This document shows, one piece after another, positions 767 to 51,216 of a stretch of 64,000 nucleotides of DNA. Each line of letters opens with the position of its first letter. Within the stretch, counting starts at the first letter, position 1. Where the stretch lies: the NCBI GenBank assembly GCA_000091205.1, contig AP006502.2; one strand, given 5' to 3'. The notes beneath the pieces are model-generated. The model had not been told where the DNA came from. It searched no databases and saw nothing but the letters and a program-made list of their open reading frames with translations. This stretch comes from Cyanidioschyzon merolae (Eukaryota). Both the position numbers and the translations under genes were made by a program.

Positions 767-3700
767 TTGGCCCCGCGCAGCTGGATCGCCAGCGGCGGCT
801 GGCCGGCGCGCCGAGCCCTCCACTCCAGCGGCCTGCGAGATACTGGATGCTGCCGGAGCGACTACCCTGTCTGTAAAAGTGCGCTGCGTACCAGCGCTCG
901 CAACAAAGCAAGCGTTTGTGCACAGTCTCGCACGAGGGTGCTCATGCGTTTGTACACCCACGGGATGAAGGGTCAGCTTTATAGGTGCGAATCCGTGGAA
1001 CGAGAACACGCAGGCAAATGGAAGGCTGGGTGGCAACAGCTTCCGGGGCTTCTCGGCTTCATCCAGAGTACAAGCCGCCCGCATTGTAGCTCCCGTTGGC
1101 GGCGTGGACTGAAAGATCCGCGAAGATCCATCCGCTATGTTGGAACCGTAAGCACTGTTCGGCGGAGGCTCTTGTTGAGTACCGGTGGGGGCTCAGGTTC
1201 CGACGAGCAGGATCCAGGCCCCGAACCCGAGCAGCATAAAAAGAACCCGCTCAGGCAAGTTCTTGGCTATGCGGATACACGTGTTTTTAAGGATCCGTCG
1301 GGAAAGAAGATTGTGCACGGTGTTCGCGTACCCGAAACGGGCGAGTTCCTTCGTGTTCGCTATCCAGCACACGTGGAAATACCCGCGGTAGGCGAGCGAA
1401 TGTTGCTTCTCGGGCGCTTCTCTTCCGATGAGAACGGCACGGAGATTTTTGAGGTTCTCGACGTGCGGTTTGTATCTGACATGGAGGGCCCGTCGCGCCC
1501 CGTTTCGAATAACCGTCATGTTTGGGATTTTCGCCAAAACGGCCACGGCTTGCTTTCCCCGTACGCTCTGGTAGGAATGGAAAGGAACACGTCTGGCCCC
1601 GCCAGCAACGCCGACCAACAGAAAACCTCTAAGACACCTAACCCCGAAACAGCCAGCAATCCAGAAGGGCCTGCATCGAATCCTCCGGAGCGTCCTCGTG
1701 ACGAAAGCGAGCGCAAGTCCAGCGAGCCGTCAGCATCTCAGCCGTCCGACATCGCAGAACGTGTCAGCGCGCAAGCCGTTGAAGCAGAGCGTCCGTCGCA
1801 GAGCAGCCTCGTTCTGCATGGAGACACTGCAGGCAGCTCATCTGACACCAAAGCAAGCAATGTAGCAAGTAGCGAGCTCCCGCCAGCGCAAGAATCCCGG
1901 GAAGTCGAGCGTTCGACAATAGAGGGTACGATCAAGAGCATCCTCTACAGGAACGCGCAAAATGAATTCGTTGTATGCGTACTATCCACCGGTGAGAAAA
2001 TTATTGGATCTTGCGCAGAGGACGTGGACTTTCTCCTCAAACCGGGCGCACGCGTTCGCCTCCGAGGTGCATGGGTTACGCATCCAGTCTATGGCAAGCA
2101 GTTTCAAGCCGGAAAAATACGTGAGAGTGCGTTCATCGCCGAAAGCGAGCAAGACCAGGGACGTGTGTCGCTAGTGGCACTCAAATCGTATCTGGCATCC
2201 GGTGTTGTGAAAGGCGTGGGCGTTAAGATGGCCGAACGCATCATCAATCGCTTTGGTGAAAGCACACTCCACGTGCTGGACACTGACCCTGCCAACATGC
2301 TGACACAGGTCGAGGGAATCGGTCGCGTCCGAGCAGAGCAGATTGCGACTGCGTGGAGAGCCCAGGCGCCGTTGCGCGCCCTGATGCTCTTTCTGAGACC
2401 GTACGGCATCGGGCCTGCGATATGTAATCGCATTGCTCGTGCGTATGAGGGTGACCCCGATCCCATTGGCCGCATTCGACTGAACCCGTACCGACTTGTG
2501 GAGGACGTGCGTGGTGTCGGTTTCAGAACGGCGGACCAGATCGCTGCAGGCTTAGGTATAGATCCCGAGTCACCTGAACGGTACGCAGCTGGCCTCCTTA
2601 ACGTGCTTCAAACGGCAGAAAACCTTGAGGGCCATAGTTTTCTCCTGAAGAGCGATGCTTTTGACCGCGTACTCAGACTTCTTTTTGGAACCAACGCTGC
2701 TGCTTCCGATGATACGAACCTTGCGGAAAGGCAAGCGCGATTCTCACAAGCGGTTGAGGACCTGAAACGTCGTCAGGCGCTGGTTGTGAATAATATCGGT
2801 GGCGACGAGGAGCCTCACCTGCTGACACCGAGGATGGACAGAGCTGAGCGTGGGATCATAGAGCACTTGAGGCGGCTCTTCTTCCACTCGAGGAAGCCGA
2901 TCGACTCCAGCGAATCCGCACGGCGCGCAGTCGAAGGACACGTCAACCGCGAGCACATCCTTCGGTGGATTAACGTGAACTATCCGACGCTATCGGCGGC
3001 ACAGCGCGAAGCGGTCTGTGTTGCCGCCGAGCAGCCTATCATGATTCTCTCAGGTGGACCTGGTGTCGGCAAAACGCATACCGCTACGGCCATTGTGCAC
3101 ATGTGGCGTACGCTGCTCGGAATTGAGAACGTCCAGCTGACTGCCCCCACGGGCCGAGCTGCGAACCGCCTGGGCACTGCGGCCAATGTTTGGGGTAACG
3201 CGCGCTGTGCCACCATTCATCGGTGCCTTGAATGCGATAGGCAAGGGAGGTTTCTTCGAAACGAACACAATCAGCTCAATACGAAGGCAGTGATTGTCGA
3301 TGAATGCTCCATGATGGATGCCCTGCTGGCACATGCGCTCCTCCAGGCGATTCCGAACGGAGCACGCCTGGTCCTCATCGGTGACGCAGACCAGCTGCCA
3401 AGTGTAGGTCCAGGCCGTGTCTTTGCGGATCTTTGCGAAAGTAATGCGTTTCCCACGATATACCTTCAGGAAATCTTTCGACAGGCCCTCAAATCGATGA
3501 TTGTTCGTGTTGCGCACGAAGCCCGGAACGGCCGCTACCTCTCGATGCCCCGAGCAAAGACTCCCGCAGAGGCGCTAGAGCTTGGGCGGAAAACCGACCT
3601 GGTCTTTCTGGAAGCAGCTGATCCAGTGATAGGTCTGCAGTTCCTACTCGAGCTGTGCTGTGGTCGAGATAACGAGCCAGAGGGCGAACGCAAGCCCGTG

Positions 3701-4309
3701 CTCCCCTTTGACCCGCTCAAGGAGATCCAGGTCCTGTCGCCCGGACACCGTGGCGTCATAGGCGTGCGTAACCTGAACCTTGAACTGCAGAAACGCCTGA
3801 ATCCCACTCGACTGCCGCTCTCAAAGCAAGCACGGACGTCGGAAGTGTTTCTCCGCATCGGTGATCGGGTCGTGCAAAATATGAACAACTACGACAAGGG
3901 CGTTTTTAACGGAGAGGTCGGCACTGTGATGCACGTCCCCGACCTCGACGCGATCGACAGCGACAACGATCAGAGTAGCCAGCTTCTGGTGGAATTTCAG
4001 AACCACGACGACTGGGTCGCCTACGACTATCCCATGGAAGCCGCCGATCAGCTGCAGCTCGCCTGGGCCATGTCCGTGCATAAGGCCCAAGGCGGCGGCT
4101 ACCCGTGCGTTGTGATACCCATCTTTATGACACATTCGGCCCTGTTGACTCGGAACCTCTTCTACACGGCTATCACGCGAGCTCAAGAGTTATGTGTGGT
4201 TATCGGGAACCTGACGGCCATTCGGATGGCAATTCGTAATGAAATCACTACAAAGCGCAACACGAGCCTCCTGCAACGCCTTGATGAACTGGAACTCGAC
4301 GCGAAATAG
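767..4309 (+). CDS. RecD2-like SF1 DNA helicase with HhH motifs, long S/P/E-rich N-terminal extension
   Basis: 1180-aa uninterrupted ORF. Walker A 'SGGPGVGKTHTATAI'. RecD-type motifs 'LTAPTGRAANRL', 'VIVDECSMMDALLAHALL', 'LVLIGDADQLPSVGPGRVF'. Helix-hairpin-helix 'GVVKGVGVKMAERIINRFG' and 'VEGIGRVRAEQIA'. C-terminal 'FYTAITRAQELCVVIG'. The true start may be an internal Met; the first ~400 aa are low complexity. Confidence 0.8.
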   Translation: MAPRSWIASGGWPARRALHSSGLRDTGCCRSDYPVCKSALRTSARNKASVCAQSRTRVLMRLYTHGMKGQLYRCESVEREHAGKWKAGWQQLPGLLGFIQSTSRPHCSSRWRRGLKDPRRSIRYVGTVSTVRRRLLLSTGGGSGSDEQDPGPEPEQHKKNPLRQVLGYADTRVFKDPSGKKIVHGVRVPETGEFLRVRYPAHVEIPAVGERMLLLGRFSSDENGTEIFEVLDVRFVSDMEGPSRPVSNNRHVWDFRQNGHGLLSPYALVGMERNTSGPASNADQQKTSKTPNPETASNPEGPASNPPERPRDESERKSSEPSASQPSDIAERVSAQAVEAERPSQSSLVLHGDTAGSSSDTKASNVASSELPPAQESREVERSTIEGTIKSILYRNAQNEFVVCVLSTGEKIIGSCAEDVDFLLKPGARVRLRGAWVTHPVYGKQFQAGKIRESAFIAESEQDQGRVSLVALKSYLASGVVKGVGVKMAERIINRFGESTLHVLDTDPANMLTQVEGIGRVRAEQIATAWRAQAPLRALMLFLRPYGIGPAICNRIARAYEGDPDPIGRIRLNPYRLVEDVRGVGFRTADQIAAGLGIDPESPERYAAGLLNVLQTAENLEGHSFLLKSDAFDRVLRLLFGTNAAASDDTNLAERQARFSQAVEDLKRRQALVVNNIGGDEEPHLLTPRMDRAERGIIEHLRRLFFHSRKPIDSSESARRAVEGHVNREHILRWINVNYPTLSAAQREAVCVAAEQPIMILSGGPGVGKTHTATAIVHMWRTLLGIENVQLTAPTGRAANRLGTAANVWGNARCATIHRCLECDRQGRFLRNEHNQLNTKAVIVDECSMMDALLAHALLQAIPNGARLVLIGDADQLPSVGPGRVFADLCESNAFPTIYLQEIFRQALKSMIVRVAHEARNGRYLSMPRAKTPAEALELGRKTDLVFLEAADPVIGLQFLLELCCGRDNEPEGERKPVLPFDPLKEIQVLSPGHRGVIGVRNLNLELQKRLNPTRLPLSKQARTSEVFLRIGDRVVQNMNNYDKGVFNGEVGTVMHVPDLDAIDSDNDQSSQLLVEFQNHDDWVAYDYPMEAADQLQLAWAMSVHKAQGGGYPCVVIPIFMTHSALLTRNLFYTAITRAQELCVVIGNLTAIRMAIRNEITTKRNTSLLQRLDELELDAK

Positions 4310-13679: not shown

Positions 13680-14115
13680 ACGAAAAATCCTCTCCTCGCC
13701 GACCAACGAGCGAAGAAAAGCAAGCGATGAAGGAGAAGAAGATGGGTGGTAATGGTCCAAAAAAGGTGTCCACCGGACTGGGCGATGATGAGACTGTCGT
13801 GGCACAGCGGGCACAAGTTCTAGCGATCCTCGCCATGACGAGTTCAGCCAGAGGCAATAAACACAGGAAGGTCGTGAGCCGCGACTTCAATGCCGTCATC
13901 AATATAAGATGATATGTAGTGCTGAGGACGAAAACTGCGGAGCTGACGCGTGCGAGCTTTGTGGGCCAGCCTTCTCGGCTCGAAGTGTGCCTGGATACAC
14001 TGAAGCCGATAGCATCGGGTCGGTCAGAAAAGTCTGGGAGGCATGTGCACATGGGCAGATATATTTACCTCCCATGGCCAGAGCGCGTTTCCCGTTATAA
14101 TGGCCGTGTGTATGA
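13680..14115 (+). pseudogene. 3' fragment of a TnpB/Fanzor-like element (copy 4): C-terminal RuvC-III region plus conserved non-coding tail
   Basis: Translates to '...GPKKVSTGLGDDETVVAQRAQVLAILAMTSSARGNKHRKVVSRDFNAVINIRRYVVLRTKTAELTRASFVGQPSRLEVCLDTLKPIASGRSEKSGRHVHMG'. This is homologous to the C-termini of copies 1-3, and the post-stop sequence is also conserved. There is no upstream part of the ORF. Confidence 0.7.
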
Positions 14116-31580: not shown

Positions 31581-32194
31581 ACAAACGCACGGTGCTGATC
31601 AATGAACGCACTCCTCCTCTGAACGATGCGTTTGCGAATATGTCCTGCAGCGCAGCACGATCGCTGAACAACCCTTGACTGGACAGTGCCAGGACCGATT
31701 CCGTTGCGTGTTCGTGCGGGCGCTTCACGCCAGTCACGTTCCGTGACGCAGTTCCTCGAGATCCGGCACCGTCGTGCGTTACGTACTAGTGCAGTAGCAA
31801 GTGAAGCAGAGTGAAGCAATGCGCCCACAGCGACCGTACAGAACACTTTGCTAGCTGGACGAACGTTACGCATGCGCCTCTCGCATCAGAGGAGGCCACT
31901 GCATTGACCGATGTTACGAGCCAATGCGCTCCGAGAAGCGCATTTGAGCACCATGCGTTGACCAGGGGCGTCTGACACACCACCCCTCCGTGTTACGAAG
32001 CGTACAGCGCTGAACGAAGTCAAAAGAAAGCCCGAGTCGCGTGGAAGTATCGAGTGGTTTCTGTGAACCGCGCAGGTCGTTCTCATACCATACCTAAAAG
32101 TTAAATCTCAATACCCTTCAAGTTGATCCTGGGATTTCGATAGCGATGCCGCAACAGAAGCACCGCTCACCACTAAACGCCCTCCAAAAGCCAA

Positions 32195-34700
32195 ACGTTG
32201 CCGCCAGCAGCGGTATACAGTGGTGGCGCGAAGCCCGCCCTAGACAAGAAGTCTCCAACTGACGTGCAAACGCCTCCCAGTCTTTTTGGACCGGCCACCC
32301 ACTGCTGCTTTCAAGTTCTTCTCATATCATTCCACTTTGAGAGGTTGTCCAACAAAATTCCATCTTGTCAACTCCGGAGGTCTTCTTTCCATGGCCGCGC
32401 ACCTCTTTATATTGATAGCGGCGTTAGTCACGATTCACAAACTCCATACGCTTCTTGCCATTGATTGTACTAACCAGTGCAAGGAGTCCTCGAGCTTTCG
32501 CCCTCCTTTCCATTTGCTCTTCCGTCAGTGGTCCGTACCTTTTTATATCCTCAGGGCTCCGTTGGCACTTTTCCATCTCGAGCCTCTGAAGTATACACCC
32601 CAGTTCATGGTGTGTATAGGACGTTCGGAACTCATCTACAGGTATCGTAACGAAACGCCGTGCACACTCCTTGTCCACCCTCGTCGTTGGAGCTGGTGCA
32701 CACCCCTTTTGGGTCTTCCATCGGCCTGCTCCGTACGCTACTACGAGCCTCTGACTTTCATTCTCCTTCAGGGCGCTCAACTCATTGAAAATTTTCGCGA
32801 ATGCACGTTGCCTCCCACCGTATAGATTCATCCGCAGACGAGCCCACCGGGGCTTTCTACACTCCTCCCACAGCGCATCCCAATACGCAACGCGAACTTC
32901 CATGAACTCTCGAAAAGCTTTAAAGTCCGCTCCGCGGCTCGTCACCTCGCTCAAAGCCTCCAGGTGATCCTTCATTCCTGCGTTCCACGTCTCAATTTTC
33001 TTCCTAGCATTCATGATACCGGATTCTCGATAGTATCTTGCTCTCGAGAATCTCAACAGACGCATGTCCTTCTGACGTAATTTACCGTCAGTACCATCTT
33101 CCGCACGCTTGAGTGCTGCGATGGTTATGATATTCGTGTTTCCGAGGTCCGCGCCAACGACAAAGTCGTTATCCTGCACTTTCTGCGTCGCAAGATCCGC
33201 CTGTTTGTTTTTTCATGCTTGGTCATGGGCAGAACTGGACGATCCACCTTCAACCGCCGATAGTGTACACACATGGCTACTCCATCGGTTTCGGTCATCC
33301 CACTGAATTTCTTTTCCCTGCTTACTTTGAGACGTTTGATTTCGAAGATGTTCTTCCAGTAGGTCTCACAGTTTTCACCGGAGAACTCCTCCCTGTTAAC
33401 ATTGGACTCGGGACTGATCTCCCTCATGATGCCGTAAAGGATTCTGGAATCGATAGTCACAAAACGTGACTTGATGTTGGACAACGGAACGACGTTGAAG
33501 CGCTTACCCAGAAGCGCAGCCTTTCGTCTCCCCCACTCTTCATTTTTTCCTCACTCAGCTTCATCTCTGCCTTGCGTTCGAGTTCACGGTCCAGAAACAC
33601 AAAGTAACGCAGGACGAGGCGATAGTATCTTTCGTTATCTTTTTTCAACTCTGATATGTTTGCTGCTCGGTTTGCCAACCCCAGTACCGCACGATGCTCT
33701 TGTATAGCCGCTCGGATGACGGAATCCTCATTGATGCTCCTGAGTGATTTCTTCTCGTCGATGAATTCAATCTCATCTTCACGCTTGCGATCGTTCGTGT
33801 TGCCATTGACAATCGCCCATATCCCCTGGCGAATGAGACCGGGGTAGAGTGCAAAGATGGAGCGTATCATGAAGCTTTTGAGGTTCATTGTTAAATGGTT
33901 CTTTAGACTGGTGAGGTACTTCATCGCCCCGTAGGTGTAAATATTCCAATCCCCCCTGTATCGAGTACCGTCGAAGCGGAAGTCGGCGTAAATTTTGTGG
34001 AGGGCATGAACTCGCTCATTTCACCTAGACGTTTCCCCGGTGCCAAGCATAAAGTGATAAATAAAGGTTTTGTTGAAAAATTCTTCCAGAATATGGACTG
34101 TTTTGATGTCCGTAACGTCATGATACCATTTTCTTAGGAAATCCACCATTCCTTGAGAAGCGTCACGAACACCGCTGGAGTTCGGCTCGACACGGTTCCA
34201 GATTGCCTCTTGAACGTTTTCCCTGTACGGATCCTTGGTATGTTGAAGAAGACAGGCTTTCACCGCCATCTCGTCGTACCGTCGTCTTTTGTGTAGCCTT
34301 TGACGTAGGGCCTTCCACTTTTACTTCTTCTTCTTATCCTGTTCCTTTGCACTTGGCACTGTTCTTCGTTGTTTCGGGCTGCCGGCGACATTGGCGCCCA
34401 GGATCCTACACTTCCACTTCCGTAACTTTCCTTTTTCAATATAAAAACCGAAACCACTTTGGATGGGACAGCTATTACGCACGAAAAAGCACTTGAATAC
34501 AGTAGAGTGAAGGTTGAAACACGATTGAGGACAAACAATGTATTTTTCTACGACTTGAACATCGTTACAATTTGTACGTTAGAGCTACACGCTTCATTTT
34601 TCCGATGGAAAAACACTTATATTGACAATGGATCCCAGATTGTGCTATGAATGGGTATCGGATTCAGCGAAAGCGTCCATCATGCTGCATCCTAACTCCA
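32195..34700 (-). mobile_element. TnpB/Fanzor-like element copy 1; ORF broken by several frameshifts
   Basis: Minus-strand ORF pieces 34269..34021, 33924..33457, 33484..33125 and 33179..32424, plus a frameshifted tail to about 32275, are co-linear with the 757-aa copy-3 protein. The '[15 protein letters not shown]' RuvC-I-like motif is intact. The RuvC-III region 'RD*..NAAINI' is disrupted by a 2-nt deletion. The 5' leader and the 3' post-stop tail are both conserved with copies 2 and 3. Confidence 0.75.
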
Positions 34701-35269
34701 GATTCCATTACGTATACTTCCTTTCAGATGTACTACTCGTCTCGTGCTTCCTGTCATTCGCCGGGTGCATGCGTTGATGCACACGCCTTAGCGTCTAATC
34801 CGCTGATGCCGATGAATCACAGAGACAGGACAGCGTTGCCGTACTACTGAGAGCGTCGGATCGAGGAATGCTCCACCTGACACAGAGTTGGAGTATAGGA
34901 TCATTCTGGGAGCCAGCAAGCTCCGCAGACAGACACACTGCCTGCGATAGCGTGAAGCTCTATACTAGGACTCCACCGCGACCAGATCGACGCCCAGATG
35001 CAGTTTAACTGCCGCTAGTACCAGAATAAACTGTGCTTCAGACGAATTGCTCAGATTTCTATGCAGCACCCGCCACTGGGTGGCGAGCACGAAGCACGTG
35101 CCTGGGGTACTCGTCTGGCTCGCGGGTTTTTCCGTCGAGAAAATCAACTTTCGACAAAACGGGAACCGTTTCCCCCTTTTATCGTTTATCGTGCAGGGGA
35201 GATAAATTGGGGTACCTTGCTAGTTAATGGTTAGTCTCTGTTCTTTGCTCCGTATGCTGCGGTCGGCTA

Positions 35270-37770
35270 GCGCGCCGGGGAGATCAGGTCGTACGAGACA
35301 AGACGCACGTGTCGCCGTTGAAAGGAGACGCGAAATTGTGAAAATCCGTTTTCTTATTGTTCTACCGTACAAGTTGTATTTGCGTTAAAGTCGTAACAAA
35401 GTAAAGTTGTTTCATGCAATTGTGTTTCAAACCTCAAGTAAGTGTATACAAATGATGTTTAGCGATTCAGATCAGAAGCGTTCAAAGAGCCTTCTTCTTC
35501 TTCAAAAATAACAAAAGTTATGGAAAAGAAACTGGAGGATCCTGGACATCTGGTGTCGTCGACTGCCGGAGACTAACGAAAAACATGGCGGAGCTAAAAG
35601 GAACATGAGAAGACGATGGAGCAAAAGAGGGAGGCCCGAGGTAAGAAGCTGAACGAAACACGACAATACGACCATATGATGGTGAAAACCTGTCTTCTCG
35701 GGCATATCAAGGATCCGTCCAGGCGAAAGCTGCGAGAGGCCATCAGAAACCGTATCGAGTCATACTCCATGAGTGTTATGATGGCTTCTGCAGGTATAAT
35801 GCATTCGGTGAAGGAGATGCACGACGACGTAACGGGCATCAAAACAGTCGAGGTTCTGGAAGAATTTTTCGGCAAAACCTTTATTCGTCACCTGATGCTT
35901 GGTACAGGGGAAACGTCGAGGAGAAATGAGCGGGTGCATGCCCTCCACGAAAATTACGCCGAATTCCGCTTCAACGGTCCTCGAGACAGGGGTGACTCGC
36001 GTATTTACACCGTCGGGGTAATGAAGCACCTCACGAACCTGAAGAACTATTTGACCATGAACCTGGAACGTTTCATGATACGCGCCGTCTGTGCGCGCTA
36101 CCCGGGCCCCTCTCGCGAAGGGATATGGACCATCACCGATGGCATCACAAACGATAGTAAGAATGAGCAGGAGATCGAATTTGTTCACGAGAAGACATCA
36201 CGCAGGAGAGCAAATGAGGATTCTGGAATCCGTGCGGCTATTAAAGAGCATCGTGTGGTCTTGGGGCTGGCGAGTCCAGCAGGAAAGATATCAGAGTTGA
36301 AAAAAGATACGGAAAGATACGATCGCCTCATCTTGCGCTATACCATACTCCTGAACCGACAACTGAAATGCAGGACCGATATGGAGCAGGGTGTGGAAGC
36401 AAATGCAGTGTCGGAGAAACGGAAAGCTGCGCTTCTGGAGAAGCGCTTCAACATCGTTCCGTTATGCAACATCAAGTCACATTTTGTGAGTATCGACTCC
36501 GAAATCCCTCACGGCATCATTACGGAGATCTGTCCAGTGTTCGATGTAAGCAACAAGGAGTTCACCGGTGAAAACCAGGAGACGTACTGGAAGAAGAATA
36601 TCTTCGATTCCAAACGTCTCAGAACGAGCAAGAAAAAGGAATTCACTGGGATGATCGAAAGCGATGCGATAGCCATGCGTGTACATTATCGGCGCTTGAA
36701 GGCGGATTGCCCAGTTCCGTCTTCGTTGCAGTCGCTGGCAAAGCGTGAAGAAAACAAAGAGGTTAGCCCAACGAAGCAGGAGGTGCATGAGAACCACTTT
36801 GTCGTTGGCGCGGGCCCTGGGAACACGAATATCATGACCATCACAACACGCAATTGCGGGGATGATGGCATCGACGGCAACCTACGTCAAAAACACATGC
36901 GTGTTTTAAAGCGCTCAAGAACGAGATATTACCGAGAATTCGGTGTGATGAATGCAAAGAAGAAAAGTGGAACGTGGAATGCTGGAGTAAAAGAGCACCT
37001 GGAAGCGATCAGCCAGGTGACGGGCCGAGGAGCGGACTTTCTAGCTCTTCTGGAGTTCATTAAAGTTCGCGTTGCACATGACGTGGCACTGTGGAAAGAA
37101 TATACAACGCCTCGGTGGGCTCGTCTACGTACGAATCTGTACTGTGGAAGAAGCGTGCATTCGCCAACTTTTTCAATCAGTTGAGCGCCCTCAAGGACGA
37201 CGAGAGGCAGAGGCTCGTCGTAGCATACCGATCAGGGCGCTAGGCGTGGAAAAAGGGACTACCCGAGCTCCAACGCCGAGAGCGAACGAGAAATGCGCAC
37301 CCCGTTTTGTCACGATACCTGTAAATCAGTATCGAGCATCGTATGTGCACCATGAGCTGGGGCGTACACTCCAGAGGATCAAGAAGGAAAAGTGCCAGGG
37401 GAGCCCCGGGGATATAAAAAAGTACGGAGCGCTAACAGAACAGCAAATGGGACGGAGGTCTAAAGTTCGAAGACCCCTGGCATGAACGAGTACAGCCAGT
37501 AACGGCAGGAAACGTATGGCGTTCGTGAACCGAGACTTTAACGCTGCTATCAATATCAGGAGATATACGCTGCTAAAGAAGAGACCCGACAAGCTGACGC
37601 GAGCCAGCTTTGTGGAGCACTCCCTCAAGACCGAACTGTACTAGGAGAAGCTGAATCCAGTAGCAGGTGATCGGTCCAGAAAGACGAGGATCCGCCTGCA
37701 CGTCCGCAGATAAACATGCAGTCCGAGGGCGCGAGGTACCCAGAAACACACCGACGGCGGCTGCGCACGC
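35270..37770 (+). mobile_element. TnpB/Fanzor-like element copy 2; frameshifts plus an in-frame TAG
   Basis: ORF 35616..37184 continues, after a 1-nt deletion, into 37072..37485, and after a further shift into '...GRKRMAFVNRDFNAAINIRRYTLLKKRPDKLTRASFVEHSLKTELY'. The RuvC-I position reads '[11 protein letters not shown]' (Asp to Gly). The 5' leader starting 'ggagatcagg...' and the 3' tail are shared with copy 3. A (gcgtgcaat)3 run lies at 37785-37808, just outside the element. Confidence 0.75.
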
Positions 37771-45485: not shown

Positions 45486-48320
45486 ACCTCGGAGATGAAC
45501 AGGCCGGGCGCTCTTCACACACGAAGCCAGCTCTGTGCGGTGCAGGTCGCTCGCTTGTGAGTGTATCGCATATCTGCGGCACTTTATTTGTGTGTCTTGA
45601 GATCTGTGTGTCTATATGCTAGAGTATCAGCGGGTCGTCAGGCGCGTGTGTGGCTCCTCGAGCATGCGCTTCCCTGATCGCTCGACTCGGGGCCCTGCGG
45701 GCATTCAACATTCTCGACGCATCTGCGAGACGTGTGTCATGGATCCAACCGGCATTGCACCTAGCCGCTGGCAAGGCGCCTCTGAATCACTGGACATACG
45801 TAAGCATCGTGCTCGAGCTGTTGAGCTCTTTTCGAAGGGAATCTACCGACAACATGGCTTGCAAAGTCATCGGGGCGGGACCACACAACAGGGGCTTTGT
45901 TTGGACCCTCTTTTCAAAAACGCAACCAGAGACGGCACTTGGATGCATTCATTCAGCTTTCCGCACACGTAACAGGTTGCAGCTATGCACAAGCGCCTCG
46001 TACGCGACCGGTCATTAGCGAGATACCTGCGTAGAATCGCGGTCTTCGTAGAGAGCATGCGTTCCGTGCGACGCTCCAAAATGACAGCGTATTCTGTCCA
46101 CGATTCTGCCTGCTCGTCATTTGGCTACAGACCGTCGGCTTTGTGAGCGCAAGCTGAAAGCGTTCACGCAATGCGCATGATGCATCATCAATACAACCAG
46201 CCAAGCAAGACGGGATTCCTGACCATGGACTAGATTTCGCGTCAGGGGAGTCTGTCGAAGAAGCAATGCGTGCGAGGAGGACGTGAGCCAATCACGATCA
46301 TCCTCCATCCGCCCGGTCTTTCTCTGGGGTATTGAGTGAATGCTCAATCATTCGGAATAGAAGCCATGACGAAAAGCACCAAGAGACAAACGTGGGGTCA
46401 CTGCAGCGGCGTGCATACCAGCCCAAGCGCTTGCTGGGGCAACCAGTGCTTGCTGAGCGAACGCTGCGTAACGCTCTTAGCGACAGCAGTTTTAGACTCG
46501 CGATCGGCAGTGGCACACTCGGCAGGTCTTTTGGGCGAAGGATCAGGACGCATCCGGGATGCACTACTGCACACCTGCGGTACCAGAGAGGAACGAGGTT
46601 CCCGGACAGACCGTATTCCCGCTAGTGGAGGGTGCCGTACCCGCGCCTCGGCAATGCCTAACGAGGTTGCTGTTCAGGACTTGAATCTCTAGAATGCTTC
46701 CTACAGATGACGAGACTTTGGACTCAGAGCAGCGCACTTGCAAGAACATGTATCAACACGGTAAACGTGTAATTGTTTGTTTTTCGCACAGGTATTCAAA
46801 ACGTGGATTGTATATTATAGAGCGATGAAAGGTCGCGAGATGACTTTATGCTGGCTGGCTGGCTGGCTTCGGAGCAAAACGCCTTTACTTGTCCAGACCA
46901 GACATTGTGCGGACAGCAGACGTATGAGGTACCCCTCTCGTAGTGCGTTCCTTGAACGACTTGCACCGACCACAGCAAGTTTCAAAAGCTATCTACATGA
47001 GCGTCCCGTCTTTCATGTATTCCAGCCCGGATGATATCCATGACGTACCTCCAAAGAAGCCGCTGGATGAGAGGTTTTCGAACGGTTGATACAAATTGCG
47101 GTGAAGCGACACGAGTGAACGAAGAAGATGGCAGGCTACTACTTGTAGCTGCAGCACCTTGAACAGCGCACGATCGATTTCGCACTGCAACGCGAAAGTT
47201 TATTCCACCAGGGGCATATTGCCGTCTCAATGTATGAGACTTTATTCAGTAGACTTGGTAGATTTGTGTATGGATAATTCAAAACGGGGGCAAACTGCTG
47301 TTCATAGAAAAAAAGCAGCGGGGCTGTCGGTACTATTAGCCCTGGCTACGACTCGGTTATGTAGTTACTTATACATCGCCAAGAATTGTCTAATCGTTCA
47401 ACATCGCATGCTGCGGGGAATCACGTTTTGCGACCTATTCGTTTCACGTTCTTCTTCACTGGCCTTAGACGTTGCCGCTTTCCATCACTATAATGTGGTC
47501 ACGGAGTATGCAGATGAGATCGGCAATGAGCAGTGCTACGTGTGAGCGATGGCTCCCGGTTCCAATCGAGTAGGGGGTATGTCTGTCGGTCTCTGTGCTA
47601 CGCCCGATCCAGCGGTTTGGGCGCTGTTTCGAACGCTCACGGCAGTCGCAGTGCACAATGGAACGTCGGAAAAGCAGAATGTCGGAGATGAGGCACGCGA
47701 TGTGACTGGTGGAAATCGCAGAGCTGGTACGCAATGACGGCAGATTTCCCGGGTGTCGGTACTCGTCGTGAATTCCCGGATCATTGAGCCGTGAGCACAT
47801 TCCATCGATCAGAACGAATTTGCGGTGGGTTGCTCGACACTTGCTGGCCTGGCGCCGGATAGAAACACAATTCAAACCAGTTTCTCATTCCAGCGTCTGT
47901 GCAGAATGGACTGCAAGAAACGGGAATAAACGTGTATCCGTAGTCGGGAAGACTGCGGCGCATAGTTTGTTTACGATCAATAAAACGAACGAAATTCCTG
48001 TTGAGTAGGGTGATGCATACCTCGCCCGCACAAGCGTAAGATACTACAATGGCTACGCTTTTGATACAGGCGTCGAGGGGTATCGTGCCAGGCCCCTGCA
48101 TCCCCTTGTCTGTCGGGGCGGTACTGCGATGGGCAGTAGCGTCGGCACCAGCGACAGAACCTATAGCAAGAGTTCATTCTACGTGAGTTTCCGATGTACA
48201 ATACGTTGTTTTGGCTGCAGTGCACCGGTGAGAGCACGCATGTGCCAATGCGGGGTGTCGGACACGTGTCCTTTATCGATCGGTGCAGCGTCTCGCGCGG
48301 TGCACGCATCGCGCTCAGTG

Positions 48321-50965
48321 CGCGCACCTAGGAGATCAGGCAGGCGTGAGACACGACGCGCATGCCGCCGTTGAAGGGAAACGTAATCGTGATCAGCAGC
48401 GTCTAGCTCTCGTGTTAAAGTTGTATTTTCGTTGACTTTATGGGCAAGTATAGTTTTCAGTTCAATTGTGTTTGAAAACTCAAACAAGTGTATTCTAGTG
48501 TTTTGTCGCAGTATATAAGAGGAGCGTTCAAAGAGGGTTCTTTTTCAAAAAAAACTAAACAAGGAAAGTTATGAAAAAGCAAGTCGACGATCCTGGAGGC
48601 CCAGTGTCGCCGGCTGCCAGAAAGAAAACAAAACACAGTGCCGAGTCCAGAAGAAGAGGAGAAGAAAAAGAAGCAAAAGGAGGAGGCTCTACGTCGAGTG
48701 CTGCAAGAAAGACGAATGTACGACGAGAAGGTGGTGAAAGCTGGTCTTCTTGGATATATCAAGGATCCGTACAGGGAAAATTTGCGAGACGCTATCAGAA
48801 AACGTGTCGACTCGTACTCCAAGAGTACTGTCAAGGCGTCGTCAGGACTGATGCACTCGGCGAGGGAGATGTATCGCGACGTGACGCACATGCAAACAGT
48901 CGAGGTCCCAGACGAGTTGTTCGACACGACCTTTATTCGATACTTGATGCTCGGTACAGGGGAGATGCGAAGGGAAAATGAGCGAGTGCACGCCCTCTGC
49001 CAAAAATACTCCTTCTACAGCTTCGAGGGCACTCGATACAGGGTTGACTCGTGTATTTACGAATACGGAGCGATAAAGTACCCCACGAACCTGAATAAAC
49101 ATTTGACCGTGAACCTCGAACGTTTCATGATACGCGCCGTGTTTGCACTCTACCCGGGCATCTCTCGCAAAGCGATATGGATCATCATCGATAGCATCAA
49201 AAACGATAGTAAGAATGAACAGGTGATCGAATTTGTTCACGAGAAGACATTATGCAGGAAAACGAATGAAGCTTCTGTAATCCGTGCGGCTATACAAGAG
49301 CACCGTGCAGCACTGGGGCTTGCGAGTCCAGCAGAAAAGATATCAGAGTTGAAAAAAGATAAGAAAAGATACCATCGCCTCGTCCTGCGCTATTTCGTGT
49401 TTTTGGACCGAGAGCTCGAACGCAAGGCGGAAATGAAGCTGAGTGAAGAGACAAATGAATATTGGGAGAGACGGAAGCCTGTCCTAATAGGGCAGCGCTT
49501 CAACGTGGCTCCAATGTCCAATATCAAGTCACATTTCCTGACGATCGATTCCGGCGTCGTTCATGGCATCATGAGGGAGATCAGTCCCGAGTTCAATGTT
49601 AACAGGGAGGAGTTCTCCGGCGAAAACCGGGAGACGCACTGGAAGAATATCTTCGATTCCAAACGTCTGAGAGTGAGCAAGCAAAAGTTGTTCACTGAAA
49701 TGATTGAAACCGATGGAGTGGCCTTGTGTATACACTATCGGCGGTTGAAGAGAGATCGGCCAGTCCCTCCCTCGGCCGCGCCCGTGACGAAGGATGAAGA
49801 AAAGGAGGAGGCCGGTCCTGCGACACAGGAGGTAGACGATAACGACCTTGTCGTTGGCGCGGCGGAGCATGAAGATGAGAAGGAGGCGGATCCTGTGATG
49901 CAGGAGGTGGAGGATAACGGCCTTATCGTTGGCGCGGTGAAGCTTGATGAAAACAAAAAGGCAGATCCTGCCACGCAGAGAGTGCAAGATAATGACTTTG
50001 TCGTTGGCGCGGACCCTGGGAATACGAATATCATCACCATTGCAGCACCCAAGCGTGCGGAAGATGGTGCTGATGGTAACTTGCGTCAGAAAAACATGCG
50101 TCTTTTGAGGTTCTCGAGAGCGAGATACTATCGAGAATCGGGAATGATGAATGCAAGGAAGAAAATCGAGACATGGAATGCAGGAATGAAGGAGCACCTG
50201 GACGCTATGAGCGAGGTGACGAGCCGAGGAGCGGACTTTGAAGCTTTTCGGGAATTCATGGAACTTCGTGTTGCGCATTGGGATGCACTGTGGGAGCAGT
50301 ATACCAAGCCTCGGTTGGCTCGTCTGCTTATGAATCTATACGGGTAGAGGCAGCGGGCATTTGCGAACTTTTTCAATCAGTTGAGCGCCCTCAAAGAGGA
50401 TCAAAGTCAGAGGCTGGTAGTAGCATACGGGGCAGGGCGCTGGGCGCCCAAGAAAGGCACTACGCCAGCTCCATCGACGAGAACGTACAAGGAGTGTGCG
50501 CGGCGTTTTGTTAAAATTCCTGCAGATGAGTTTCGAACATCGTATACACATCATGAACTGGGATGTACACTTCAGACGGTGGAGATAGAAAAGTGCCAAC
50601 GGAGTCCTGAGGAAATAGCAAAGTACGGACCGCTGACGGAAGAGCAAATGGAAAGAAGGGCGAAAGTGCGAGGGCTACTCGCATTAGTAAGTACAACCAG
50701 TGATGGAAAGAAACGGATGGAGTCTGTGAATCGAGATTGTAACGCCGCTATCGATATAAGGAAATGTGCGGTGCTAGAGAAAAGACCTCCAGAATGGACA
50801 AGAGAGAACTTTATTGGACAACCTCTCAAAGTCGAACTATATGAGAAGAAGTTGGAAGCAGTAGTGGGTGGCCGGTCGCAAAAGTCTGGGAGGCGTCTAC
50901 ACCTCGGATGAAAGCGTTATGTCTAGGGCGGGTTTCTCGCCACTAGTGTGCACGGTCGGCATCGT
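48321..50965 (+). mobile_element. TnpB/Fanzor-like element copy 3 (best preserved)
   Basis: A ~300-bp leader is shared with copy 2. A single reading frame runs 48638..50911 with one internal TAG. About 55 bp of post-stop sequence is conserved with copies 1, 2 and 4. Confidence 0.8.
48638..50911 (+). pseudogene. ~757-aa TnpB/Fanzor-like (RuvC-fold) protein gene with one in-frame TAG at 50345-50347
   Basis: ORFs 48638..50347 and 50381..50911 are in the same frame, separated only by 'tac ggg TAG agg cag'; copy 1 reads 'tac ggt ggg agg caa' at that point. Motifs: K/E-rich N-terminus; '[16 protein letters not shown]' (RuvC-I-like); 'FVKIPADEFRTSYTHHELGC...EKCQ' in the position of the TnpB zinc ribbon; 'NRDCNAAIDIRK' (RuvC-III hallmark D-x-NAA-x-NI). 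Confidence 0.75.
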
Positions 50966-51216
50966 TCGACTGCGTTTAGGTTCTCTCTTTTGCAAATGAA
51001 ACACATCCTCCATCAGACTTGCGAAAACGACGCAGCGCTCCTTGTCGTGCGAAGGCGTTTCCGCGCTCGTGCCTGCAACGCTGTACATACCCGTGTGTCT
51101 ACAGAGGCCGGCGCCATGCAACCGCCCTGGCGAGCAGCTGTTTATCCGGAGATGCTTATAGCATCTTGAACTCGGAGTCGAGCTTCGTTTTCCGTTGTGC
51201 GCAGATGGTGGCGTGG

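Follow-up and report, generated by a model that had tools for sequence, protein, structure and literature searches.

The 64,000-nucleotide (nt) stretch analyzed here, called the window, is nuclear DNA of the red alga Cyanidioschyzon merolae 10D (contig AP006502.2 of GCA_000091205.1), and three of its open reading frames (ORFs) are identical to 10D proteins encoded on the 1.62-Mb chromosome. Its genes are intronless and eukaryotic, including RB, cullin, Nug1, and eIF2B. Self-BLAST identified three long copies of a ~2.7-kb repeat, whose ORF we assign, from profile and motif evidence, to the Fanzor1 nuclease of the published CMe-1A family. The segment at 50889-50987 forms the right-end module of copy 3, a CMe-1A copy that is now dead. 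A first-pass annotation of the window had proposed that the tail after the copy 3 stop codon is both the element right end and a candidate omegaRNA scaffold. The repeat copies and their main parts are as follows:

13790 to 14056, plus strand: copy 4, found by protein-level match, a fragment of the C-terminal part of a divergent subfamily; its tail is unrelated
32168 to 34528, minus strand: copy 1, degenerate (self-BLAST 34528-32217 and beyond), with its 3' module at 32168-32277
35270 to 37759, plus strand: copy 2, degenerate (self-BLAST 35270-37704 and beyond), with a marginally alignable tail at 37705-37759
47850 to 48303, plus strand: 5' extension of copy 3, common to "class A" copies
48304 to 50987, plus strand: core CMe-1A element of copy 3 (self-BLAST 48322-50949 and beyond; left bound 48304-48312)
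48571 to 50926, plus strand: degenerate Fanzor1 ORF of copy 3, frameshifted near 48632 and interrupted by TGA in frame at 50345-50347 and again at 50909

The three long copies are all pseudogenes. Copy 3 is a relic: at least three lesions interrupt its ORF, and its terminal hairpin is eroded. The codon at 50345, TGA in this copy, is Gly in homologs. Copy 4 has 41% amino acid identity to the last 90 residues of the Fanzor ORF.

An exhaustive profile search returned 2245 relatives of the repeat-encoded protein. A profile of 47 relatives matched three PDB entries only, all of them Fanzor1 structures: 9cf0 (Parasitella PpFz1; E = 6e-18), 8gkh (Spizellomyces SpuFz1; 1e-12), and 9cer (Guillardia GtFz1; 2e-6). 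The PDB search with a single sequence or an 8-sequence profile gave no match, and Pfam gave nothing above threshold for pieces of the ORF or for homologs, only a weak Cas12f1-like_TNB match. Fanzor1 proteins are recognized by a RuvC-I DPG, a relocated RuvC-II Glu beside the zinc-finger position, and a RuvC-III RD..NAA.NI (Yoon 2023), and the CMe-1A family has all three. In family alignment A6, D484-P485-G486, E656 (VDEFRT), and R724-D725 are invariant or near-invariant, and the DPG aspartate, DEFRT glutamate, and RD aspartate themselves are invariant; the copy 3 ORF retains NRDCNAAIDI (RuvC-III). The Fanzor1 motif also includes a C4 zinc finger between the Glu and the RD (Bao & Jurka 2013, PMC3627910). 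No C4 finger is present at that position here, where the CPKC of PpFz1 aligns to THHE/hhed, and the zinc finger of CMe-1A Fanzor1 appears degenerate. An AlphaFold2 model built from a 15-sequence alignment had a mean predicted local distance difference test score of 35.6 and was discarded, not used. The first-pass assignment to a TnpB/Fanzor system was borne out, as the profile matches solved Fanzor1 structures only and the family literature agrees. An in-frame 75-nt tandem repeat (49788-50012; three units, 76% matches) lies just upstream of the RuvC-I DPG, and its unit number varies among homologs (P0001, P0006).

CMe-1A was described in C. merolae as a ~3-kb element with ~150 copies, ~80% identity to consensus, and no terminal inverted repeats (TIRs), its 5' 635 bp being TE-N2_CMe; the description came without termini, target site duplication (TSD), or RNA (Bao & Jurka 2013, PMC3627910). 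The window copies share with CMe-1A/TE-N2_CMe the organism, the multicopy state, the ~3-kb length, Fanzor1 as sole gene, ~80% inter-copy identity, the lack of TIRs, and a 5' part common to another repeat; they are likened to this Repbase family by its published description. The extension at 47850-48303 is probably the TE-N2_CMe-like part. Thus, the element family is already known, and the right end and candidate scaffold are mapped here for termini left open in 2013. In the literature found, no omegaRNA is reported for C. merolae.

To place the right end, we used more copies. The C-terminal alignment, used to scan hot-spring metagenomes (JGI assemblies), detected more than 452 relatives, 79 loci of which were analyzed; because they are closely similar to the C. 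merolae element, we infer that they are Cyanidioschyzon-like in origin. Together with the window, these loci gave 54 non-redundant insertions, of which 51 belong to the main subfamily. One suspect pair excepted, the non-redundant copies are mutually at most 89% identical; the insertions are therefore old.

Across the 51 insertions, whose flanks are unrelated, column conservation is 0.83-0.91 over the final 100 ORF nucleotides and 0.69-0.88 in the tail, and it falls to 0.27-0.39 past the consensus ...CGAACGGCGTTTG. Alignability persists for ~75 nt beyond the copy 3 TGA before reaching background, and subfamily-specific terminal bases (…TGGTGYGKG, …TTTCCAGGGGTG, …GGTTTCTCT) add 10-17 nt to the end. 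The right end falls at 50987 +/- 3 in copy 3, where L036 is the closest paralog of the module, and at ~32168 in copy 1. The right-end assignment is secure: the tail lies inside the mobile unit, which ends near 50987 and not before the segment flagged in the first pass. The parts of the right end of copy 3, all on the plus strand, are as follows:

50889 to 50987, plus strand: 3'-terminal module, comprising the last ~12 codons and the non-coding tail (start, solo-module start; end, conservation drop and L036)
50909 to 50911, plus strand: TGA in place of a Trp codon, a premature stop specific to the lineage (TGG in 39/51 relatives; stop in 9/51)
50924 to 50926, plus strand: TAG, the canonical family stop (TAG/TAA in 36/51 non-redundant copies)
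50927 to 50941, plus strand: hairpin GGCG-GGTTTCT-CGCC, a conserved 4-bp stem with a hypervariable interior (the sole helix that RNAalifold retains across the 51 copies)
50942 to 50953, plus strand: conserved linker (consensus ACTACTGTACAC, copy 3 ACTAGTGTGCAC), with non-coding positions at least 90% conserved
50953 to 50972, plus strand: short eroded terminal hairpin CGGTCGG-N6-TCGACTG (minimum free energy [MFE] fold)
50973 to 50987, plus strand: last element bases to the boundary (+/- 3 nt), GCGTTTAGGTTCTCTC, common with L036 (GCGTTTGGTTTCTCT) before divergence
50988 to 51007, plus strand: host flank, not alignable between insertions, which would be the guide if the omegaRNA model holds

Within the window, the exact 24-mer TGTCTAGGGCGGGYTTCKCGCCAC occurs solely at 50920-50943 (plus) and 32246-32223 (minus), with 0 expected by chance. 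When each tail was locally aligned to the family consensus tail and compared with shuffles, z was 31 for copy 3, 24 for copy 1, and 3.4 for copy 2, in which only ACACCGACGGCG at 37748-37759 stands at the correct offset. Copy 4, whose divergent subfamily has another tail, scored a nonsignificant 1.7. The first-pass claim of a tail common to all four copies therefore stands for copies 3 and 1, is weak for copy 2, and fails for copy 4. The similarity it placed within 55-75 nt past the stop is real and reaches further, to the boundaries given above. Tails of the copy 4 type (subfamily 2) are so scarce and so divergent that no structure could be derived from them. In P0032 (L081-L083), a 35%-identical relative, the element ends ~18 nt past the stop codon, so tail length is lineage-specific; one P0032-type copy adjoins a DDE_3 Tc1/mariner transposase gene.

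The tail is non-coding after the TAG at 50924-50926. Protein-level conservation had been taken to end at the copy 3 stop codon; this needs correction, as that TGA is a minority premature stop and the usual stop lies at 50924-50926. Excess variability at third positions persists to ~50911 and is then gone, and the hairpin interior, with lengths of 5, 7, 9, and 14 nt, is incompatible with a reading frame. One could suppose that the tail is a C-terminal coding extension, conserved since it was translated in an ancestral ORF, as in P0005 and P0006, two metagenome proteins that read through both stop positions (...LHLGWRRFVQGGFLATTVHGRH...). However, the canonical stop is found in 36 of the 51 copies and a stop five codons earlier in another 9, codon periodicity ends at ~50911, and the indels are not multiples of 3. 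Together these observations largely refute a coding extension, which we regard as highly improbable.

In the family consensus, the tail consists of a small hairpin (GGCG-N7-CGCC), a linker (ACTACTGTA), and a long terminal stem-loop, and CMe-1 elements finish with CCACTACTGTACAC, the hairpin, and the end. The GGCG/CGCC stem is at least 90% conserved, with loop variability of 0.2-0.5. The segments GAGGCGTCTGCAC, GTCTAGGGCG, and CGCCACTACTGTACAC are conserved to at least 90% as well, and between them lies the hypervariable 7-nt interior of the hairpin. The linker is 12-16 nt long and strongly conserved; in the window, its motif was found in sense orientation only in copies 1 and 3. In the ORFs of copies 1 and 2, homologous positions carry antisense 13/16 matches to CGCCACTACTGTACAC (33255-33270, plus; 36679-36694, minus), probably by chance.

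Well-kept relatives (L031, L053) have a 19-bp stem at the position of the terminal hairpin. In the consensus, the base of the long stem-loop (for example CACCGTTGGCGTCGTTCGA-CTT-TCGAACGGCGTTGATGGTG) is at the element boundary; the stem-loop stops ~0-17 nt short of it. Stems of unrelated sequence occupy this same place in different lineages: GACAAC.../...GTTGTC, AGCAAC/GTTGCT, GGCAGCG/CGCTGCC, CCGGCGAG.../...CTCGCCGG, CACGGTCG/CGACTGTG, and CACTGGCG/CGCCGGTG. The terminal 52 nt have a mean MFE of -18.3 kcal/mol, compared with -14.1 for shuffles and -10.9 for flank, with z < -2 in 18/51 copies, and whole modules of well-kept relatives fold at z = -3.0 and -4.4. Rfam gave no gathering-score match in the window and none at E <= 10 in 50600-51100, and a tRNA scan found none.

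The module lies on the nuclease strand, at and after the ORF 3' end, and terminates at the transposon right end, which is the position of an omegaRNA. This position, with the layout of two hairpins plus linker, makes an omegaRNA role plausible. By homology and layout, a template for an omegaRNA scaffold is the best-supported mechanism, and we consider it on balance probable, though without great assurance.

Several results weigh against this interpretation. The window copies' own modules fold at z = -0.7 and +0.2, no better than shuffles, and 80-nt windows in the tail give z-scores of about -1.3. With all 51 copies as input, only 3 bp survive in RNAalifold, and for a set of 24 canonical copies it predicts two hairpins whose covariation term is ~0; the stems it finds are those of conserved sequence only. 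A 35-pair model has 79.2% of cells paired (78.3% in shuffles) and a nonsignificant covariation score of 0.119 versus 0.111, reached by 51/500 shuffles. Thus, covariation across copies, a check suggested in the first pass, is not above controls. Mean tail variability is 0.19-0.21, equal to that of the 5' untranslated region (UTR), the weakly constrained N-terminal region, and third codon positions (flank, 0.43-0.5). As this is the neutral level within the element, alignability alone shows only co-transposition, i.e., that the tail is inside the mobile unit. A plus-strand folding bias is found equally in the ORF control, so strand asymmetry is uninformative. Finally, no clear target-adjacent motif (TAM) emerged from the left junctions. 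For the scaffold proposal, then, position and layout speak in favor, and covariation, mean conservation, and the folding of the window copies speak against.

The neutral variability, nonsignificant covariation, and modest thermodynamic z-scores would also be expected of a passive 3' UTR, alignable as co-transposed DNA, with structure arising by accident from a G+C-rich consensus. Such a passive tail does not readily fit the blocks of at least 90% conservation adjoining a hypervariable loop, the hairpin potential maintained by stems of unrelated sequence, or the persistence of the module without the ORF (below), and we judge it unlikely. The host poly(A) signal UAAA is also missing from 46/51 modules; this matches the expectation from composition and is therefore weak evidence.

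A ~100-nt module without the Fanzor ORF was found at L023 1300-1398, with orthologs at L034 923-1024 and L021 917-1020. This solo module starts exactly at GGAAGCGTCTGCAC, corresponding to window position 50889, the 5' base of the first stem. It folds into three hairpins (z = -2.0) and lies 20 nt upstream of the TE-N2-like 5' extension of another copy. It may represent a "ghost" omegaRNA locus or else an element that lost most of its 5' part, and, being known from one locus, it is a lead only.

At the left end, the family-wide core starts at 48304-48312, a bound set by loci whose upstream flanks are unrelated. The left end (48304-48330) begins with a small palindrome, GCGCTC-GGT-GAGCGC, which is mutated in copy 3. 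Near the left end, the 7-nt sequence CGCACCT is the inverted complement of ...GGTGCG, with which some subfamilies terminate on the right. Left junctions often have (C/A)ATCG, a possible TAM, before CGCTCGGTGAGCG, with the boundary uncertain by ~6 nt and few independent junctions. No stand-alone TE-N2 copies that could fix the left junction occurred in the sequence examined, and right flanks searched against all 83 loci and the window gave no empty sites. Upstream of the core are several repeated classes with variable start points, in head-to-head and head-to-tail arrangements. Copies 1 and 2 are head-to-head, with ~740 bp between them (32168-37759). In metagenome loci of classes B and C/D, the upstream regions of the two copy classes are mutually reverse-complementary; thus, head-to-head pairs recur, with right-end modules at both outer ends.

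These ends bear on whether the hairpin and conserved block act at the DNA level alone, as recognition or termination signals for a transposase, possibly of HUH/rolling-circle or IS200/IS605-like type, with no RNA role. Such a DNA-only signal would suit an element that has no TIRs or TSDs, a palindrome at its left end, and a terminal stem-loop just before its right boundary, and whose 5' starts vary as 3' ends stay intact. Tandem head-to-tail copies and solo 3' ends also recall the 5'-truncated Helitron2 Fanzor1 elements of Chlamydomonas. However, the termini are ...GGTGYGKG or ...TCTCT and, apart from the 3' hairpin, do not follow Helitron/Helitron2 ends (5'-TC...CTRR-3', with a hairpin 10-30 nt from the 3' end). 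No asymmetric TIRs (ATIRs) were seen by inspection, with no genome-wide RepHel search made. IS200/IS605-like elements have subterminal hairpins at both ends and a Y1 TnpA; in CMe-1 a left palindrome and a right-end hairpin are present, the element has no TnpA, and no transposase gene, Rep/Hel or Y1, was found in it. CMe-1A was moreover left unclassified in the very publication that defined Helitron2 (Bao & Jurka, PMC3627910). An exclusively DNA-level role is thus possible but doubtful. A DNA signal is compatible with the omegaRNA reading, since the TnpB right-end hairpin has both DNA and RNA roles.

If the module is an omegaRNA template, active copies would have transcribed it, together with some 35 nt from the 3' end of the ORF, as part of the Fanzor mRNA. 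The transcript would then be processed into a scaffold that binds the Fanzor1 protein, and read-through into the flank would supply a 15-20-nt guide. The expected RNA would be a discrete species of 90-130 nt that starts close to GGGAGGCGUCU or GUCUAGGGCG and runs 15-20 nt beyond the right end. The terminal hairpin may double as a DNA end signal for a transposase.

This scheme has counterparts in characterized systems. In TnpB of IS200/IS605 elements (ISDra2), there is overlap between the guide RNA scaffold and the 3' end of the nuclease ORF; the scaffold runs to the right end, and the guide comes from the flank. The CMe-1 candidate shares this placement with the ISDra2 right-end RNA (reRNA/omegaRNA); ISDra2 differs in being bacterial, having a Y1 TnpA partner, a TAM defined at the left-end flank, and a larger ORF overlap. 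Fanzor RNAs (fRNAs) derive from a conserved 3' non-coding region abutting the right end, and the GtFz1 omegaRNA overlaps 17 codons. The SpuFz1 scaffold is 75 nt with two stems, and ORF-less "ghost" omegaRNA copies exist (Saito et al. 2023, PMC10432273). Like the SpuFz1 omegaRNA, the CMe-1 module lies 3' of a Fanzor1 ORF, abuts the right end, and has an ORF-less counterpart at one locus, and the tail from GTCTAG to ...GGTG spans ~71 nt in a SpuFz1-like arrangement; the likeness is one of position, size, and layout. The two differ in host transposon type. In Chlamydomonas, Fanzor1 in Helitron2 elements gives small RNAs from a conserved 3' UTR. Chlamydomonas CRe-1/2/3 (CrFNuc) copies are, like CMe-1, 5'-truncated or variable with intact 3' ends, but CMe-1 showed none of their Helitron2 features, namely ATIRs, insertion after TTTT, and variable TSDs.

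A more speculative idea, to which we give little credence, is that CMe-1 is a eukaryotic counterpart of minimal TnpB-only insertion sequences, with end hairpins, no TIR or TSD, and Fanzor1 as sole protein. Its ~100-nt, three-hairpin 3' module would be a self-contained omegaRNA gene, surviving as "ghost" copies and perhaps exchanged between elements. Exchange is conceivable because L034 and L036 match exactly as far as the stop codon and then continue into different tails. The identical block (L034 3717-4517) is 800 nt at 100% identity and ends at the stop codon; upstream of it identity is 75-93%, and downstream both tails and flanks differ. The block reflects either gene conversion or chimeric metagenome assembly.

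Elsewhere in the window, an 1180-amino-acid ORF (767-4309) on this red-alga nuclear chromosome carries all the domains of a RecD2 helicase of bacterial type (OB_YrrC, HHH_RecD2, AAA_19/30, SH3_13, and UvrD_C_2).

The finding leaves knowledge of how Fanzor systems work unchanged. If the module is a working omegaRNA in active copies, thermo-acidophile Fanzor1 loci would number in the hundreds in C. merolae and its hot-spring relatives, and C. merolae, a genetically tractable alga, would be a place to test the role of Fanzor for a transposon without a recognizable transposase.

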